Numbered from the stretch's first letter, positions 18,046-44,741 are shown. The stretch is 64,000 nucleotides of DNA from an uncultured Clostridia bacterium (GCA_947599825.1 CANQFS010000001.1:20452-84451), one strand, 5' to 3'. The notes: a model not told the origin generated them from the sequence alone. Made by a program: numbers and translations.

Positions 18046-18350
18046 GTACCATTAGGGACGTTTCCTTTTGGTACATCTGTCCCTAATGGATATTCGTTTT
18101 ATAATGATAATATAAAACTTTCAAAAATGCTCGTTCAAGTTGATTTATCGCAGAAATTCTAAATAAATTTTACGGCACCCTTCCATTTAAAATGAACTCT
18201 TTCCGTAAAATTTATTAAGAATTTCTAAGCTCAATCACTTTCAATACGCTTTTTTCAAATTTTATATTATCATTATAAATATTTATCAATGTACCAAAAG
18301 GGACAGATGTACCAAAAGAAAACGTCCCCAATGGTACCCCAAATGGTAAC
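18046..18350. repeat. 305-bp composite palindromic element: two inverted full GGGAC-box copies around an AT-rich core with nested inverted repeats
   Basis: The left copy is 18046-18089, gtaccattagggacgtttccttttggtacatctgtccctaatgg. The right copy is 18291-18350, inverted. Nested IRs are tataatgataatataaaa/ttttatattatcattata and agaaattctaaataaattttacgg/ccgtaaaatttattaagaatttct. Confidence 0.85.
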
Positions 18351-20591
18351 TTACATCATATTTGATGGATTTATTTCTATGGTTTGTGAAATGCTTTTTT
18401 TGCACTCGTTTTGCTCTATTGCTTGGTGCAATAGTGTGTTGATTTGTTCATTATAAATGCATTTTATAATCATACGCCAACGATATTTATTTTTTATTTT
18501 ATCTATTGGTGCTGGCACTGGGCTATATAATAGAATGCCTATTTTTTCTGTTATAATTCGATTTTTTAAATATTCATATACTTTTTTTGCTTGTTTTATT
18601 ACTTCTTGCTCTTTTTCTGAACTAAAACCAATTACTATTATATCGCAAAAAGGTGGATATTTCAACTGTTTTCTTATTGGTATTTCACTTTCATAGAATT
18701 CTTTATAGTCTTGCTGTTTTGCTTGCTCAATTGCTAAACTATCCGGGTTATATGTTTGTATTAATACTTTTCCTTGTAGTTTTTCTCTTCCTGCTCTTCC
18801 TGCTACTTGTGTTAGGATTTGGAAGGTTCTTTCATTTGCTCTAAAGTCTTCAATGTTTAAACTACTGTCTGCTGCAATTACCCCTACTAATGTTACTTTT
18901 GGAAAGTGATGTCCTTTTACAACCATTTGCGTTCCTATTAAAATGTCTATGTTTTCTTCTTTGAAGCGATTTAGTATTTCTTCATGCGAATTTTTTTTGC
19001 TTACTGTATCTACGTCCATACGAATTGTAGTTGCATTTGGAAATAGTTTTTGTACTTCTTGCTCTAGTTTTTGCGTACCAGTTCCAAAGTAACGAATGTT
19101 AGTACTTTTACATGCTGGGCATACTGTTACTTTTTTTTCTTCATAGCCACAATAATGGCATTTTAGTTTATCTTGTTTTAAGTGATAAGTCATTGTAATA
19201 TTGCAATTTTTGCATTTTACTGTATAGCCACAATCTCTACACATTACAAAGGTAGAATATCCTCTTCTGTTTAAAAATAAAATTGTTTGCTGTTTTTTTT
19301 CTAAATTTTCTTTTATGGCTTCTTGTAATTTTACACTTAGCATAGAGCGGTTTCCATTTTGCAGTTCTTCTCTTAGGTCAATTATTTCTACTGCTGGAAG
19401 ACTAGAGTTATTAGCTCTTTTCTTTAATTCTAATAGCTCTATTTCTCCTTTATTTGTCTTATAAAAAGTTCCTATTTCTGGGGTTGCACTTCCTAAAATA
19501 AGTGGACATAAATTTTCTTTGGCTAATATTTGTGCTACTTCTTTTGCATGATATTTTGGCGTCATTTCAGATTGGTAAGAAGAATCATGTTCTTCGTCTA
19601 TAATAATTACTCCTATGTTTTGAATTGGTGCAAATATTGCAGACCTAGCACCAATAACAATATTTATTTTGCCAGATGCTATTTTTTGCCATGCATCATA
19701 ACGCTCCCCAATAGATAATTTGCTATGTAAAACTGCTATTTTTTCTTTTCCAAATCTTGACATGAAACGTTCTACCATTTGAGGTGTTAGTGAAATTTCT
19801 GGTACAAGCATTATGCTTGTCTTGCCTTTACTTATTGCTTTTTCAATTGCTTGCATATAAATTTCTGTTTTTCCAGAGCCTGTCACTCCAAATAGCAAAA
19901 ATTGGCTATTTTTTTGCTTTTCTATTGCTTGTTCAATTTTTTCATAGGCTTTTTCTTGCTCATCATTTAATTTTAATTTTTCTGTTTTTTCTACTTCTTT
20001 ATAAAGAAACGGATTTCTTTCTACTTGCTTTTCTACTATTTCAATATAGCCATTTTTTTCTAAGGTTTTTATTATTGCTCTTGAGGTATCGGTAAATATT
20101 TCTAAGTCGCCAGTAGTAATTGCATCGTTTTCCATTAAGAAACGTAAAATACGTATTTGCTTTTCTGATTTTATTTTTTCATTTTCTATTTCCCACTCAA
20201 TTTCGTCTTCTTCTTTTTTCAAATATACAAAATTGTTGGTTTTCTCTTTAATTCTATTTTCTACTTTATTTGTTTTAGTTCCTGGCGGTAACATGAGTTT
20301 CATGCTATCTGATAAATTACAAAAATATCTTTTGGAAATCCATTTTGCTAGTTTGATTCTTTTTCCATTTAAGAATGGATTGTCCGACATACTTGCAATT
20401 TCTTTTGTTTCAAAAGTTGATGTTTCTTTTAAACCTACTACAAAACCTTCTTCTAAAACTTTTCTTCTTCCAAAAGGAACAAAAACACGATTACCTATTT
20501 TTATTTGTTTTTCCATGTCTTTTGGCACTTTATAGTCAAAGGTTCTATCTAAATCTTTTGCATTGGAATTTAAAATAATTTCTGCAATCAT
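18351..20591 (-). CDS. priA: Primosomal protein N' (replication restart helicase PriA)
   Basis: 746 aa with Walker A GVTGSGKT, DEEH box IIIDEEHD and a Cys-rich zinc-binding insert. Confidence 0.95.
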   Translation of the reverse strand: MIAEIILNSNAKDLDRTFDYKVPKDMEKQIKIGNRVFVPFGRRKVLEEGFVVGLKETSTFETKEIASMSDNPFLNGKRIKLAKWISKRYFCNLSDSMKLMLPPGTKTNKVENRIKEKTNNFVYLKKEEDEIEWEIENEKIKSEKQIRILRFLMENDAITTGDLEIFTDTSRAIIKTLEKNGYIEIVEKQVERNPFLYKEVEKTEKLKLNDEQEKAYEKIEQAIEKQKNSQFLLFGVTGSGKTEIYMQAIEKAISKGKTSIMLVPEISLTPQMVERFMSRFGKEKIAVLHSKLSIGERYDAWQKIASGKINIVIGARSAIFAPIQNIGVIIIDEEHDSSYQSEMTPKYHAKEVAQILAKENLCPLILGSATPEIGTFYKTNKGEIELLELKKRANNSSLPAVEIIDLREELQNGNRSMLSVKLQEAIKENLEKKQQTILFLNRRGYSTFVMCRDCGYTVKCKNCNITMTYHLKQDKLKCHYCGYEEKKVTVCPACKSTNIRYFGTGTQKLEQEVQKLFPNATTIRMDVDTVSKKNSHEEILNRFKEENIDILIGTQMVVKGHHFPKVTLVGVIAADSSLNIEDFRANERTFQILTQVAGRAGREKLQGKVLIQTYNPDSLAIEQAKQQDYKEFYESEIPIRKQLKYPPFCDIIVIGFSSEKEQEVIKQAKKVYEYLKNRIITEKIGILLYSPVPAPIDKIKNKYRWRMIIKCIYNEQINTLLHQAIEQNECKKSISQTIEINPSNMM

Positions 20592-40728: not shown

Positions 40729-43449
40729 TCATTTTCTAGAACTTATTCTTGGATTATCATACGGGTTCGGAGTATTAAGATTTTGTTCTTTTCCTTCTAG
40801 TATAAACCTTGCACGATATCCTTTATGGGAAATATTAAGAATTTGGTTTTTAAAAAGGTACTCAAACTTAACCCACTTAACCTTTCGAGCCCATTCTTCA
40901 TTTGTATTTTGAATCACTTCACGCCAACTATTGTAGTAAGTGGTTCTTGCAGGTTCATTCATACCAATCGAAATTCCTGTTATGATATTATTGCAATTTT
41001 TTTGGTCAATTAAGGCCCGCCTAATTGCTTCTAATACCTCTATACTTTCGTTTTCTGCTTTTACACCACCCATTATATCTGCAAATAACTCACCTTCATC
41101 AAATAAGTTCAGTATAACTATGGCAATACGTTTATTTTCGCCATCTACAATTTCTATTGCATGGCTATTACTTGATAAAAATACGTTTTCTGCTTCTACA
41201 CCATAAAAGTTGACCTTTTTGGATTTTTCTTTTGAGTAGAATGATTTTGCAAATACTAAATAAGTTTCTAATGCTCCTATATCAAAAAACCGATAGTGCA
41301 TTGTAGAACTCTTGTCTTTGTCTACAGTTGTAATAATATTTTTGTCTAAAGTACCTCCTAATTTTCTTTGCACAACATTGTACAAATCAAGAATTTTTTC
41401 AGCAACTTTCCCTTCAATATTCTGTTCTGCTTCAAACAGTTCTTTCACAAAATCTGTTATAACATCGACTTTTTTGTGGAATATATACTGTGGAGCAGTT
41501 TTCATAATAAATTCTGGTGAAAGAGCAACATTTGCCTTTTTTGCCTCCGTTTGGAATATTTTATTTCCTTCTAAGAAGGCAAAAATATAAGGTAAAAATT
41601 CCTGATTGTTGATATTCTCTTTGACCAAATTAACGGCTGATGTTGGAACATAAAACATAGGATCTTGATTCATTTCTACTTCTTTGAAACTGCGCTCCAA
41701 CCTTGAACGGTACATTTTACTGACATTTAACCTTGAAATTAACCACTCTGCCTGTGCATGACAATAGTCTCCATTTAACGCACCAAGAGCGATGTATAAA
41801 CGAATGACTCTTGTTCTTGCTTTTTCATCACTTGCTAAGAAGACATTGTCAAAATTTGTTTTGTCTAGTTTAAGCCATTTCTTGATGAATTCAGTCGAAG
41901 TAGGGAAATACCTCATCAGTTCAGGATAAGGAAGTTTTTTGGCTACCTGTGCCCATGCATGAATTTGTAACTGGTAATTTTTCCAGTCTGAATATGAATA
42001 TGAACTCCACAAACTACTTAATTCTTCAAGTTCATTCATACTTTTGACACCACTTAACTTGCATAGTTTTTTGCTATCATAAACATATACACCTTTCGCA
42101 TCAACAAGTGCAAACGTATGATCTGAAAATAATGGCTCGCCGCTTACGCAAATATAATCGCCTTTTTTGATGATGATTTCAACATCAATTTTTGAAATAT
42201 CTACTACTTGTTGTTGTTTGTCAAAAGTAAAAATAAGATATTTTAATGCACCTTCATGTGGCAATTTTATTTTAGTATCGGTGTTTATAAGGTGAGCTGG
42301 AATGGAAATAGAATGAATATTCCTTAACCAATATAGAGCATAGTATCCAATCTTCTCTATGTTGGGAGGACAGATAAAGTTTCCTTCATACTGTTCTGCT
42401 TGCCACATTGACTCTATTCCATCTAAAACAGTTTTTCCTGTTTCATCTTTTTCATATTTGCACCTCTCCTGCCAAAACTTTTCGCGTAACTCTTGCAAAT
42501 TTAGGTTAAGAACTTGTTTGCAGTTTTCTACTCGGCTTTTACACTCATCAAGAGTAATTTCTTCCATATCATATGATTTTCTCGAGTTTAACACATTGAT
42601 TAATCCAATTTTAATTTTACGTGCAGACGCCGTCTCTTGTATCCACTGTATGTCTGATAAAAGTTTTATCACCTCATTTTTGTGTGCTTCACAAGCAGAA
42701 TTTAACTCTTCATCGTTTGTAAATTCCCAAGTTTTATCTAATAAATCAAATTCAGTTATAGAATTAACTCTGTCACGAAAACCATTCATTAAATTGTGAA
42801 TCTTCTTCGTTAACATTCTAGTTTCTTCCATATAATGAGCCTCTTTTAATGACTTTGGTGTTTCGTTACCTTTTCTTATTAGTTCGTTTACTACTTTTTT
42901 TGCCTGCCTAAAGTTTTCCTCTAAACCGGTAATTTGTTTTTTCTTTGCTACTGCAACAATCTCTTGAATTTTTTTAATACAATCTTGCTGTTCTTCAAGT
43001 ATTAATTCATGATATTCCAGATATTCTTCCTCAGAAAATGTATAATTCATTGCACCGGTAGCAAGCTCAGCAAACATTTCCAGTATTTCATTTTTGTGTT
43101 GAAATTCTACATCTAGAAACTGTAAAATAGCTTTGCGCTGTTTTTCTTTTTCTATTTCTACATTTGTTTTCTCCTTACCATTTTCTTCTTTGTTTTGCTT
43201 TTTAGCATAATATTCATAAACATTTGTAGAAACCGGATTTTGTGCATCATACATAGCCCGTTTCTTTGGATTAATTAATGTAGCATATGCCTCATTAATC
43301 TTTTGCATTTCCTTCTTTGCAAATTCCTCTTCTTCACCTCTGGCTTGAGCTGTATCCGGGTGCCATTTCTTTGAAAGCTTTCTATGTGCTGCTTTTATAG
43401 CTTTTTCATTTGCGTCTCGGTCAACACCTAAAACTTCATAATACGTCAT
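40729..43449 (-). CDS. 906-aa J-domain protein of unknown function
   Basis: The N-terminal 70 aa are a canonical J domain (YYEVLGV...KKWHPD...KKRAMYD). The remaining ~830 aa (helical/coiled-coil, then unassigned domains) match no family I can name. It has an AGGAGG SD and three in-frame CGG codons. Confidence 0.8.
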   Translation of the reverse strand: MTYYEVLGVDRDANEKAIKAAHRKLSKKWHPDTAQARGEEEEFAKKEMQKINEAYATLINPKKRAMYDAQNPVSTNVYEYYAKKQNKEENGKEKTNVEIEKEKQRKAILQFLDVEFQHKNEILEMFAELATGAMNYTFSEEEYLEYHELILEEQQDCIKKIQEIVAVAKKKQITGLEENFRQAKKVVNELIRKGNETPKSLKEAHYMEETRMLTKKIHNLMNGFRDRVNSITEFDLLDKTWEFTNDEELNSACEAHKNEVIKLLSDIQWIQETASARKIKIGLINVLNSRKSYDMEEITLDECKSRVENCKQVLNLNLQELREKFWQERCKYEKDETGKTVLDGIESMWQAEQYEGNFICPPNIEKIGYYALYWLRNIHSISIPAHLINTDTKIKLPHEGALKYLIFTFDKQQQVVDISKIDVEIIIKKGDYICVSGEPLFSDHTFALVDAKGVYVYDSKKLCKLSGVKSMNELEELSSLWSSYSYSDWKNYQLQIHAWAQVAKKLPYPELMRYFPTSTEFIKKWLKLDKTNFDNVFLASDEKARTRVIRLYIALGALNGDYCHAQAEWLISRLNVSKMYRSRLERSFKEVEMNQDPMFYVPTSAVNLVKENINNQEFLPYIFAFLEGNKIFQTEAKKANVALSPEFIMKTAPQYIFHKKVDVITDFVKELFEAEQNIEGKVAEKILDLYNVVQRKLGGTLDKNIITTVDKDKSSTMHYRFFDIGALETYLVFAKSFYSKEKSKKVNFYGVEAENVFLSSNSHAIEIVDGENKRIAIVILNLFDEGELFADIMGGVKAENESIEVLEAIRRALIDQKNCNNIITGISIGMNEPARTTYYNSWREVIQNTNEEWARKVKWVKFEYLFKNQILNISHKGYRARFILEGKEQNLNTPNPYDNPRISSRK

Positions 43450-43477
43450 TCTTTTTTCCTCCTATTGGCTATTTTTT

Positions 43478-43519
43478 GAGTAGAGCACTGTAAAAATAAT
43501 TGTTTACAGCGTTCTACTC
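43478..43519. other. Intercistronic 17-bp stem-loop between the vWA and J-domain genes
   Basis: gagtagagcactgtaaa...tttacagcgttctactc with no U-run, so it is not a terminator. Confidence 0.5.
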
Positions 43520-43528
43520 AACAACTAA

Positions 43529-44335
43529 TTATTCCAAGTACAATGTTTCTCTTGCTTTAATGCCAAGTGGATTGGCTGCATGTGCTGTGATTGCTTTTGC
43601 CCAATCTTCAGGAACTGTTCCTTTTGTACGAAGTCCATCTAATAAATCTTCAATTGTTTGAAAAATGATTTTGATTCCATCTCCATTACGATTGAAGTTC
43701 ACGGCATTATTAGATTTTATTCCAAGTTCTAATGCGTACTCTTTAGCACCACTTTCATACTCATTATTGTACAATAAGAAAATATGCTCACCACTTTGTA
43801 TCCTACTTGTAATTAATTGATATACTTCTTCTTGTGTGTGTCTACTTTCTCCATTTTGTCCATCTGTTATTAGTAAGTGTAGTTTGTGGTTAGCATCTGT
43901 TTTAAGAACTGGAGTGATAGCGCTAAATAATGCATCATAAATGTTGGTTCCTCCATTGCAACGCCATGGTTGAATAGGTACGAATTGTTTTACATCTTGT
44001 TTACCGAATTTTTGATAAACCCAATCGTCAAATACAGTAAGAGAAATCTTTGTTGTGTAAATTTTGGCTGCCTGCCTTATAGCAAATCTATTGATTTCCC
44101 GTGCAATTACTTGCGATGTTCCTTCCATAGAACCACTACAATCAATAATCAAATTTACAATAGATGAATTCCGTGCAATTTCTTCTATTAATGTTTGACT
44201 ATCAATTGAGGAAACATAGCCATCAATTGCTTTTTCTATGTTGACTTCTTGTTTCTGGATACTTCTATTTTGGCGTAATAACGCTAATTTAGATGTACCA
44301 TTATCAGGTTTACCCATTGTGCCTTCTTTGTTCAT
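43529..44335 (-). CDS. von Willebrand factor type A (vWA) domain protein
   Basis: MIDAS residues DCSGSM, GGT and TDG. The start is set at ATG 44335 (MNKEGTMGK), 9 nt after aaggagg. It has two in-frame CGG codons. Confidence 0.8.
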   Translation of the reverse strand: MNKEGTMGKPDNGTSKLALLRQNRSIQKQEVNIEKAIDGYVSSIDSQTLIEEIARNSSIVNLIIDCSGSMEGTSQVIAREINRFAIRQAAKIYTTKISLTVFDDWVYQKFGKQDVKQFVPIQPWRCNGGTNIYDALFSAITPVLKTDANHKLHLLITDGQNGESRHTQEEVYQLITSRIQSGEHIFLLYNNEYESGAKEYALELGIKSNNAVNFNRNGDGIKIIFQTIEDLLDGLRTKGTVPEDWAKAITAHAANPLGIKARETLYLE

Positions 44336-44404
44336 ACTGAAAATCCTCCTTAATATAGGTTGATATGAAAGCAAATGCTTCTTCAAATACTTTGTTACGT
44401 GTGT

Positions 44405-44433
44405 ATTATATCATAGTGTACATAAATATTCAA
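44405..44433 (-). promoter_or_regulatory. Putative promoter of the vWA/J-domain operon
   Basis: The minus strand reads TTGAAT-17 nt-TATAAT about 70 nt upstream of the vWA start. Confidence 0.45.
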
Positions 44434-44495
44434 TAGTATTGTTATGATTTTTCTTTTTGTTTTTCTTTTTGTTTAGTAAAAATAGACATAAAATA

Positions 44496-44741
44496 AAAAG
44501 GCTATATAGCCTTTTTTTCTAAATATAATAATTCTCCCCACCTTAGCCGTATATCGAAAAGAAATTTTTATACCTGTTTTCACAGGTGGGTGTCTTGTTG
44601 AAGGCTCCTGGGTTTCTTACTATTATAAAAATGTAAGCATACACGCCACCTCCAAAGGCGGACTCCCTTATTTTATTTGTTGGTAATAAAATTTCAGTCT
44701 ACACGCACCACGCAGGGAAAAGAAATAACTTATCTTTTTGT
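44496..44741 (-). ncRNA. Candidate ~245-nt structured RNA of unknown class with its own promoter and terminator
   Basis: A G+C-enriched island in an AT-rich spacer, with a closing helix UUUUCCC (44715-44721) / GGGGAGA (44533-44539). Hairpins are CCGCC-UUUGGA-GGUGG (44646-44661), ACCUGU-GAAA-ACAGGU (44572-44587) and CUUAC...GUAAG. A possible long-range pair is GGUGCGUGU/ACACCCACC. It ends in the palindromic terminator aaaaaggctatatagccttttt (44496-44517). Confidence 0.45.

Follow-up and report, generated by a model that had tools for sequence, protein, structure and literature searches.

We analyzed a stretch of 64,000 nucleotides from an uncultured Clostridia bacterium (GCA_947599825.1 CANQFS010000001.1:20452-84451), hereafter the window, with positions counted from its first letter, and focused on a pair of adjacent minus-strand genes between prmC and truB. 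The upstream gene encodes a vWA protein (V) with a metal ion-dependent adhesion site (MIDAS), and the downstream gene encodes a multidomain J-domain protein (J). A first-pass annotation, made from the sequence of the window by itself, had described both genes and their position, and we found the two open reading frames (ORFs) as it described them, with a 6S RNA gene, located just downstream of truB, separating truB from the pair. The pair and its expression signals constitute an insertion into the terminator of that 6S RNA gene. Homologous loci from other genomes are referred to by number (L001, L008, L009, L033, etc.).

40639-44509, minus strand: inserted cassette of 3.87 kb (promoter, leader, V gene, hairpin, J gene, terminator), delimited by its junctions with empty-site relatives
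43529-44335, minus strand: V, a vWA/MIDAS protein of 268 aa, recognized by its ORF, MIDAS conservation, and a weak Pfam vWA match
40729-43449, minus strand: J, a multidomain J-domain protein of 906 aa, recognized by its ORF and Pfam DnaJ
44531-44721, minus strand: 6S RNA gene ssrS, Rfam RF00013, 96.9 bits; the pair lies between this gene and prmC

Insertion and lateral exchange of the cassette

Relatives with an empty site were found via PrmC homologs from related genomes. In three of them, L033 (PrmC 81% identical), L035 (66%), and L036 (67%), truB, the 6S region, and prmC were contiguous. In blastn comparisons, L033 8374-8864 corresponded to window positions 44998-44510 and L033 8866-8923 to window positions 40638-40583; because these flanks abut in L033 where the window has the cassette, the window carries a 3.87-kb insert at approximately 40639-44509. 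The 6S RNA terminator hairpin is intact in L033 and divided by the cassette in the window. There, the old 5′ arm pairs with the start of the insert to give a replacement terminator at 44495-44516. The 3′ arm of the old terminator, left without its partner, persists 3.9 kb away at 40608-40621, upstream of prmC.

The cassette occupied identical junctions in L008 (PrmC 92% identical) and L009 (73%), and was missing from L033 although the PrmC of the latter (81%) is closer to that of the window than is the PrmC of L009. Between the window and L009, synonymous divergence (dS) was 0.056 for V and 0.124 for J, versus 0.46-0.78 for five flanking genes, while between the window and L008 it was 0.025 for V and 0.089 for J, versus 0.21-0.34 for flanking genes. 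Since dS is about 4-10x lower in the cassette than in its flanks, the genomes that hold it are much older than the cassette itself. It is a horizontally exchanged insertion, moved by recent lateral transfer. The horizontal acquisition proposed in the first-pass annotation is thus borne out by the empty sites with exact junctions, the low dS of the cassette, its differing contexts elsewhere, and an atypical Arg codon usage. Specifically, the pair contains five in-frame CGG Arg codons (3 + 2), the number counted initially, versus five in the other 32 long ORFs of the window. The same was not true of base composition. The G+C fractions of the two genes (0.33/0.34) were within approximately one standard deviation (sd) of the window gene mean (0.308, sd 0.030), and those at third codon positions (GC3) were 0.26/0.22, versus a mean of 0.185 (sd 0.042), so that the earlier impression of a visibly less AT-rich pair is marginal, and base composition, the difference not being significant, was discarded as a sign of foreign origin. 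No integrase or transposase was found in the cassette, and comparison of the junctions yielded no convincing target-site duplication or terminal repeats.

Searches of 5.8 billion proteins with J minus its J domain recovered 55 homologous clusters that were 48-100% identical, with members of approximately 850-940 aa bearing an N-terminal J domain, except for one 605-aa fragment. V had 67 homologous clusters, of which 61, comprising all of the full-length ones, were at least 56% identical; these were often on the same contigs as J. An exhaustive HMMER profile search of 1.84 billion representatives contributed one further divergent full-length J (P0124, 39% identical, colinear), and the family comprises about 60 protein clusters. 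The cassette was present at 15 loci in 185,579 species genomes, with four more in a metagenome collection. All 15 were in metagenome-assembled genomes (MAGs) of uncultured Clostridia, Eubacteriales, or Bacillota, and the isolate names of the carrier MAGs point to animal guts, including those of rabbit ("Lapin") and chicken, and goat rectum.

In every locus that contained the V gene and its downstream DNA, J followed V on the same strand. This co-occurrence across loci identifies the pair as a conserved two-gene unit, the reverse of what the first-pass annotation had named as telling against it. The lineages placed the unit in at least eight different flanking contexts, without a third conserved gene:

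aldehyde dehydrogenase / hisZ; resolvase or insertion sequence (IS) / helix-turn-helix (HTH); prfA / Bro-N; rsmB / lonC
yjbR / HTH-rluA; cdd / rpiA; glmS / contig end; ssrS / prmC

Outside the family, phage vWA genes 24-28% identical to V had no annotated J-domain neighbor in the two annotated records examined, and no J-domain ORF was present within 6 kb of 72 remote vWA relatives from Joint Genome Institute (JGI) metagenomes (L045-L116, 25-35% identity). Among the latter, the 37 that could be analyzed were vWA domains of proteins of approximately 713 aa in a different conserved operon. The neighbors in that operon, which is unrelated to the J-domain cassette, were approximately 197, 357, 381, and 355 aa.

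Expression signals, protein architecture, and state of the window copy

The V gene most likely starts at ATG 44335, which has AAGGAGG 8 nt upstream and is the point at which its homologs also begin. The TTG at 44386, selected by a mechanical ORF call, was unsupported, as both the homologs and the Shine-Dalgarno sequence favor ATG 44335. A promoter-like site at 44433-44405 and a terminator-like site at 40691-40652 bracket the pair, as had been claimed, and both are inside the inserted segment, together with two further noncoding elements:

44405-44433, minus strand: sigma-70-type promoter TTGAAT-17-TATAAT with an extended -10 TG, from a consensus scan
44357-44387, minus strand: conserved 5′ leader TTTGAAGAG-loop-CTCAATATCAACCT of approximately 30 nt, from a 12-lineage alignment and RNAalifold
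43476-43522, minus strand: intercistronic hairpin of approximately 17-22 bp, directly 3′ of the V stop codon
40648-40691, minus strand: intrinsic terminator with a 17-bp stem and T run, from a terminator scan; inside the insert

Conservation of the promoter and leader was examined in the equivalent regions of L001-L027, where the -35 element, the spacer TTTATGTA, and the -10 element were conserved in 12 lineages with J proteins only about 50% identical. Within the leader is a 5-bp hairpin at 44367-44381 that shows a few compensatory changes. The Shine-Dalgarno sequence may pair with a CAACCU of the leader, a pairing that is conserved without covariation. The stem-loop reported earlier between the two genes was also recovered, in a gap of 79 nt and not of 17. 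This hairpin had a folding energy of -23 kcal/mol (z = -5.4) and was present in most lineages, with largely different sequences. In an alignment of 14 sequences, 94% of cells were paired and 9 of 10 pairs had changed on both sides, with a covariation score that was reached by 0 of 500 shuffles, while slid controls were 25-52% paired. It was not present where the V-J gap was just 12-32 nt (L025, L027, L040). Because the tract that follows it is rich in A, not U, it is no canonical terminator; the GGAGG of the J gene comes next. The hairpin probably stabilizes the mRNA or directs its processing and so keeps V in stoichiometric excess over J. A CIRCE-like reading, suggested by AGCACT/AGTGCT half-sites in some lineages, was rejected, given that their spacing differs and that the stems of other lineages are unrelated. 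Rfam searches at a permissive threshold assigned no family to the leader or the hairpin. After the J gene, every lineage had a strong hairpin and T run, the sequence of which was different in each. The cassette is an autonomous two-gene expression unit that is mobile between genomes.

In V, three conserved regions were delineated:

44264-44302, minus strand: conserved N-terminal peptide SKLALLRQNR, from a homolog alignment
43691-44167, minus strand: vWA core
43532-43690, minus strand: conserved C-terminal extension

The Pfam matches of V, led by the MoxR-associated VWA_CoxE (20.6 bits, cutoff 26.4) and including VWA_2 (20.9 bits, cutoff 27), were under gathering thresholds, with E of approximately 3e-4. 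Several V homologs carry precomputed PF00092 or PF05762, and V matched phrog_7371, a PHROG of unknown function, at 1e-19. The complete MIDAS noted in the initial annotation was recovered as D65-x-S67-x-S69...T130...D158, in which D65, S67, T130, and D158 were invariant, and S69 was conserved in at least 90%, across 23 diverse homologs; the motif was also retained in the V partner at L040, which is 49% identical. No transmembrane segment was predicted in V. Based on these features, V is predicted to be a cytoplasmic vWA protein with an intact MIDAS motif.

An AlphaFold2 model of J, built with the family alignment of 53 sequences (the window copy and 52 homologs), had a mean predicted local distance difference test score (pLDDT) of 86.3, and no transmembrane segment or signal peptide was found in J. 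The protein was divided as follows, with LRR denoting leucine-rich repeats:

43240-43449, minus strand: J domain, residues 1-70, with HPD at 30-32, from Pfam, PDB profiles, and Foldseek
between J domain and stalk, minus strand: disordered K/E-rich linker, residues about 71-95, pLDDT <50
42622-43164, minus strand: long-helix stalk or bundle, residues 96-276, from AlphaFold2 secondary structure and pLDDT
42076-42621, minus strand: beta-rich domain, residues 277-458 (284-457 in the AlphaFold2 model), LRR-like at approximately 330-440, from a profile search and weak Foldseek matches
41350-42075, minus strand: all-alpha domain, residues 459-700 (459-697 in the full model), also modeled separately by AlphaFold2
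40780-41349, minus strand: GNAT-like alpha/beta domain, residues 701-890 (fold approximately 718-886), from Foldseek and topology

The N-terminal J domain was found as annotated, with its HPD intact. Pfam DnaJ (PF00226) matched residues 2-68 at 71.1 bits, versus a 27.8-bit cutoff (E = 8e-20), and the J-domain profile matched 53/53 of the aligned sequences, in which H30 and D32 were invariant and P31 was conserved in at least 90%. Against J domains in the PDB, E was 1e-19, and Foldseek superposed the domain on 6rzy_A with a TM of 0.89 and a root-mean-square deviation (rmsd) of 1.5. Neither DnaJ_C nor DnaJ_CXXCXGXG of Pfam had a match in the window copy or in the 53-sequence set, and there was no G/F region. 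J has the sequence features of a class III J-domain protein: the profile and HPD are there, and the G/F region, the zinc finger, and the DnaJ C-terminal domains are all lacking. NCBIfam matches to TopJ and DnaJ covered residues 1-70 only and were far under cutoffs, and PHROG matches were likewise confined to the J domain.

The first-pass annotation had regarded the J domain as the sole recognizable part and the other ~830 residues as unassigned. This is superseded for two regions, the BspA-type LRR-like segment and the GNAT-like fold. For the former, a profile lacking the J domain matched more than 140 of the 150 multi-repeat proteins listed, solely at profile positions ~235-345. These included LRR_5 proteins down to E = 4e-18, and five sampled matches were Pfam LRR_5. 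A direct Pfam LRR_5 match was found in 2 of 53 J members (E = 0.14), and Foldseek of residues 277-700 returned TpLRR 6mlx with a probability of 0.95 but E = 0.2, with weak matches to PcpA and EUBVEN_01088 as well. The LRR-like segment has only 2-3 repeat units, and the beta-rich domain appears related to BspA-type LRR through it. The GNAT-like domain was recognized by Foldseek against the PDB and BFVD, with matches to SpeG, Gcn5, HP0935, and phage acetyltransferases (probability 1.0, target-normalized TM ~0.5, E ~1e-3), and its order of strands and helices in the AlphaFold2 model is that of GNAT (beta1-alpha1-alpha2-beta2-4-alpha3-beta5-alpha4-beta6-7). Between beta4 and alpha3, the window copy has DIMGGVKAENES and the consensus DIMSCENKSI, without a conserved Gly motif.

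The all-alpha domain carries invariant motifs that include HxWAQ and MYRSRLER. AlphaFold2 modeled residues 277-700 with a pLDDT of 87.6 and a predicted TM score (pTM) of 0.78, and Foldseek returned no match to these residues in the PDB at E <= 1e-3. Hits to RNA polymerase I and to designed helical bundles were dismissed as noise. The stalk (residues 96-276) had no family match, and the HMMER search of 1.84 billion representatives with the J-domain-less profile found no relatives outside the family for the helical, alpha, and GNAT-like domains. At the C-terminus, a basic/aromatic tail ends in W, Y, or F in 47/53 members. J domains and GNATs were the sole accepted matches of the full model in Foldseek searches of the PDB and BFVD. 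We discarded ICL2 as a relative of the whole protein, since its global alignments were poor (rmsd 24) and driven by its own GNAT-like C-terminal domain, as well as PcfJ-like and polyvalent proteins (Foldseek probability <= 0.13). PDB sequence profile searches with and without the J domain gave only J domains or chance matches to myoglobin and the gamma-tubulin complex (E >= 0.01). In accordance with the initial expectation, searches with Pfam, NCBIfam, PDB profiles, and HMMER placed the large protein in no characterized housekeeping family.

Across the family, the V core and C-terminal extension were 60-75% identical, versus 43-58% for the domains of J, among which the LRR-like domain was the most variable (mean pairwise identity 43%, versus 55-58% for the other domains). 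In comparisons of the three closest genomes, the ratio of nonsynonymous to synonymous substitution rates (omega) was 0.22-0.44 for V and 0.34-0.48 for J, versus 0.03-0.25 for flanking genes. Within J, omega was estimated at 0.55 (LRR-like domain) and 0.86-1.35 (GNAT-like domain), both from few substitutions. Judged by the invariant or nearly invariant HPD and MIDAS residues and an overall omega <1, V and J are both under functional constraint.

Finally, the window copy and its host carry two lesions:

40714-40731, minus strand: premature TGA, then in-frame RSWW-TAA, at the end of the J gene, from comparison with L008 and L009
26324-27482, minus strand: canonical dnaJ of the hrcA-grpE-dnaK-dnaJ operon, frameshifted by one 1-nt insertion

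In the window, J ends in ...SSRK*RSWW*, versus ...SSREERSWW* in L008 and ...SSRRERSWW* in L009, with a GAA-to-TGA change having removed the last five residues, ERSWW, of the basic/aromatic tail. The host dnaK and grpE genes, 13 kb from the cassette, are full length. The interruption of the canonical dnaJ at the same distance, as noted at the outset, is a single frameshift (TGT AAA C GGA AAA GGA) in the fourth CxxCxGxG motif that yields a 235-aa product, the rest being intact in the +1 frame. An identical truncated 235-aa DnaJ was called in three other independent assemblies, and the frameshift is therefore probably real in the population. Since the inserted nucleotide gives rise to CGG, a rare codon, +1 recoding may occur there. 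Of the cassette-free relatives, L033 has an intact dnaJ (385 aa). In L035, the dnaJ region at 18343-18840 was called as a 124-aa ORF without a Pfam match, followed by a DnaJ ORF. Elsewhere in the window, a tRNA-like gene at 35144-35218 (minus strand; Rfam tRNA, 52.8 bits), which adjoins a normal tRNA-Glu(CTC), has an irregular-looking anticodon arm and was assigned no anticodon by ARAGORN.

Candidate functions of the pair

We propose that V and J would form a two-protein complex via the MIDAS face of V and that this complex would depend on host Hsp70. The MIDAS would probably ligate an acidic group, contributed either by J or by a captured target, while the J domain, through its HPD, would dock DnaK-ATP and trigger hydrolysis, such that DnaK could clamp a nearby segment. 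DnaK-binding peptides typically have a Leu-rich core and basic flanks, a description that the invariant N-terminal SKLALLRQNR of V fits, and clamping of this candidate segment might remodel or release the complex. The LRR-like domain would be the likely target-recognition surface, and output would likely come from the GNAT-like domain, as an effector or by binding a ligand. An excess of V over J is probably set by the intercistronic hairpin, which would either protect the mRNA 3′ end or direct processing. So arranged, the pair would be an Hsp70-powered analog of MoxR(AAA+)-vWA for which the host would provide the ATPase in trans.

Among the functions considered, a role in genetic conflict, that is, in defense against phages or mobile elements, or in addiction, with the pair acting as a DnaK-powered MoxR-vWA analog, seems the most likely, given that the cassette is mobile, patchy and narrow in distribution, and equipped with its own expression signals, and that its proteins evolve faster than those of the flanks, in particular in the candidate recognition and output domains of J. 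We put it forward tentatively. A narrower version, to which we give less credence, would be a hitherto unrecognized class of Hsp70-dependent conflict or immune module in which V is a MIDAS-vWA gatekeeper and J an NLR-like sensor-effector with its own J domain, with activation or reset powered by host DnaK and not by an AAA+ or STAND ATPase.

Several observations weigh against a conflict function or against parts of the mechanism outlined above. Neither V nor J matched any family in PADLOC-DB v2 at E <= 1, and the flanking genes of 13 loci contained no recurrent phage or defense families; the sole strong PADLOC match was to a RhuM/PDC-S05 gene that lies 6 kb from the pair at a single locus. Moreover, no family members were found in IMG/VR viral contigs, GenBank phages, or PLSDB plasmids. 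The defense role to which the first-pass annotation had alluded thus gained no backing from PADLOC, from prophage or defense-island neighborhoods, or from viral, phage, and plasmid collections. The cassette is without a mobility gene. As for its proteins, the physical association of V and J is a proposal, SKLALLRQNR is a candidate DnaK client by pattern recognition alone, and the single-domain omega estimates are built on 5-30 substitutions each. Within J, no Acetyltransf_* profile matched any of the 53 members at E <= 1, nor was there a match to a GNAT sequence in the PDB, and the Q/R-x-x-G-x-G/A acetyl-CoA pyrophosphate loop was absent by inspection of beta4-alpha3. Because both this motif and a sequence-level GNAT signal are missing, the GNAT-like domain may be non-enzymatic. 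The window copy itself may be impaired, given its lost J tail and the frameshifted dnaJ.

A different, and rather doubtful, explanation is that the pair is a specialized co-chaperone or adaptor for one host client, in which V would bind the client, such as a metalloenzyme or a large assembly, and J would recruit DnaK for its folding, activation, or assembly. CoxE, NorD, CbbO, and ViaA bind clients for MoxR ATPases in this manner, and the top Pfam match of V is VWA_CoxE. The architecture also resembles chaperone-adaptor pairs, the promoter looks constitutive, the flanks are mostly housekeeping genes, and defense-family matches are lacking. However, no candidate client gene is kept beside the pair in the at least eight contexts, the cassette is laterally exchanged and limited to 15 of 185,579 species genomes, with close relatives devoid of it, and omega is above that of the flanking genes.

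Less likely is an addiction or toxin-antitoxin-like module, in which the GNAT-like domain of J would be the toxin, an excess of V would restrain it, and DnaK would control release or turnover. Points in its favor are the GNAT-like fold, reminiscent of the TacT/AtaT acetyltransferase toxins, a mobile two-gene cassette without cargo, the better conservation of the upstream gene V than of the downstream J, and a hairpin that could favor expression of the upstream gene. Nevertheless, the sizes and architecture, with a 906-aa "toxin" and a 268-aa vWA "antitoxin" without a DNA-binding domain, are unlike those of any toxin-antitoxin family, GNAT motif A is lacking, neither Pfam nor PADLOC gives a match, and the cassette was not found on plasmids. 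Very unlikely is the reading of the cassette in this strain as a passenger in decay that now does little or nothing, while the family may work elsewhere. In its favor are the premature TGA that takes off the conserved ERSWW tail, the canonical dnaJ frameshifted in four assemblies, and an omega of ~1 for the GNAT-like domain among close relatives. Against it are ORFs that are otherwise intact, intact HPD and MIDAS, an overall omega of 0.2-0.5, and preservation of the promoter, leader, and hairpin.

If the proposed mechanism holds, the cassette would be a bacterial module that relies for its ATPase on the housekeeping Hsp70, reached via a built-in J domain. The vWA adaptor-chaperone ATPase theme of MoxR-vWA would then extend to the DnaK system, and the cassette, being compact and amenable to genetics, would exemplify a mobile element that connects to the proteostasis of its host. 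With ~15 species of uncultured gut Clostridia, the family is very narrow, which leaves its general importance uncertain. The family also presents a confidently predicted alpha domain of ~240 residues without a structural relative in the PDB and a GNAT-like domain without a cofactor motif. Additionally, the cassette is a clean case of gene transfer without a mobility gene, has exact junctions in a small-RNA terminator, and carries two conserved noncoding elements, the leader and the intercistronic hairpin.

Comparison with known systems

In the searchable literature, we found no description of a vWA/J-domain pair or of DnaJ combined with defense, and the two nearest papers describe different systems; the initial statement that no pair of such architecture had been described agrees with these searches. 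Known chaperone/adaptor pairs of the MoxR(AAA+)-vWA type include RavA-ViaA, CoxD-CoxE, NorQ-NorD, and CbbQ-CbbO. The pair studied here differs from these in that no AAA+ ATPase gene is present in the cassette or in any locus flank, such that the J domain must borrow host DnaK, and in that J, rather than the vWA protein, bears the effector and sensor domains. It is established that vWA domains serve chaperone ATPases as adaptors, in conflict systems among others (Kaur et al. 2020, PMC7159879). As in the MoxR-vWA pairs and the conflict systems of that work, the MIDAS vWA gene of the cassette adjoins, and presumably works with, an ATP-driven chaperone component.

The same work (PMC7159879) describes GAP1-N2 GTPase conflict systems of actinobacteria and multicellular firmicutes that comprise HSP70/GrpE, GTPases, and an FNIII-DnaJ protein. 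The cassette resembles them in having a J domain on a non-chaperone protein, with vWA proteins appearing in sister themes, and differs from them in being without its own HSP70, GrpE, or GTPases. The TerY-P triad consists of a TerY-like vWA protein, a PP2C phosphatase, and a Ser/Thr kinase (PMC11090510). The cassette shares with it a stand-alone MIDAS vWA as the first gene of a small mobile cassette, TerY-P being linked to defense contexts, whereas no phosphatase or kinase gene was found in any neighborhood of the pair, its partner is a J-domain protein, and it had no PADLOC match.

At the level of single domains, residues ~718-886 of J resemble GNATs (SpeG, Gcn5, RimI/RimL, and the toxins TacT/AtaT) in fold and in the order of strands and helices. 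Unlike those proteins, the domain has no sequence-level match and no recognizable acetyl-CoA loop, and it is embedded at the C-terminus of a 906-aa protein. Toxin-antitoxin systems of the GNAT type (TacAT/AtaRT) pair a small ribbon-helix-helix (RHH) or other DNA-binding antitoxin with a toxin of ~170 aa, in contrast to the 268-aa vWA protein and 906-aa protein of the cassette, which have no matching families. Residues ~330-440 resemble BspA/TpLRR (LRR_5) proteins in profile searches and, weakly, TpLRR by structure, and differ from them in having 2-3 repeat units in a protein that is cytoplasmic and without a signal peptide.

Class III J-domain proteins with a dedicated partner gene include those of CbpA-CbpM, DjlC/DjlB-HscC, and HscB-HscA, as well as Mycoplasma TopJ, and the polyomavirus large T antigen is a functional analog of such specialized J-domain proteins. 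In cbpAM, the operon partner modulates the J protein. Like these specialized class III proteins, J has an N-terminal HPD-bearing J domain fused to unrelated domains, a design that targets Hsp70 to one job. Unlike CbpA-CbpM, DjlC/DjlB-HscC, HscB-HscA, and TopJ, to which J has no similarity beyond the J domain, its partner is a vWA protein rather than a MerR-like modulator or an Hsp70 paralog. By the sequence comparisons made here, the pair is outside the MoxR-vWA, TerY-P, GNAT toxin-antitoxin, and PADLOC systems and, at the level of domains, within the class III J-domain and MIDAS-vWA superfamilies.

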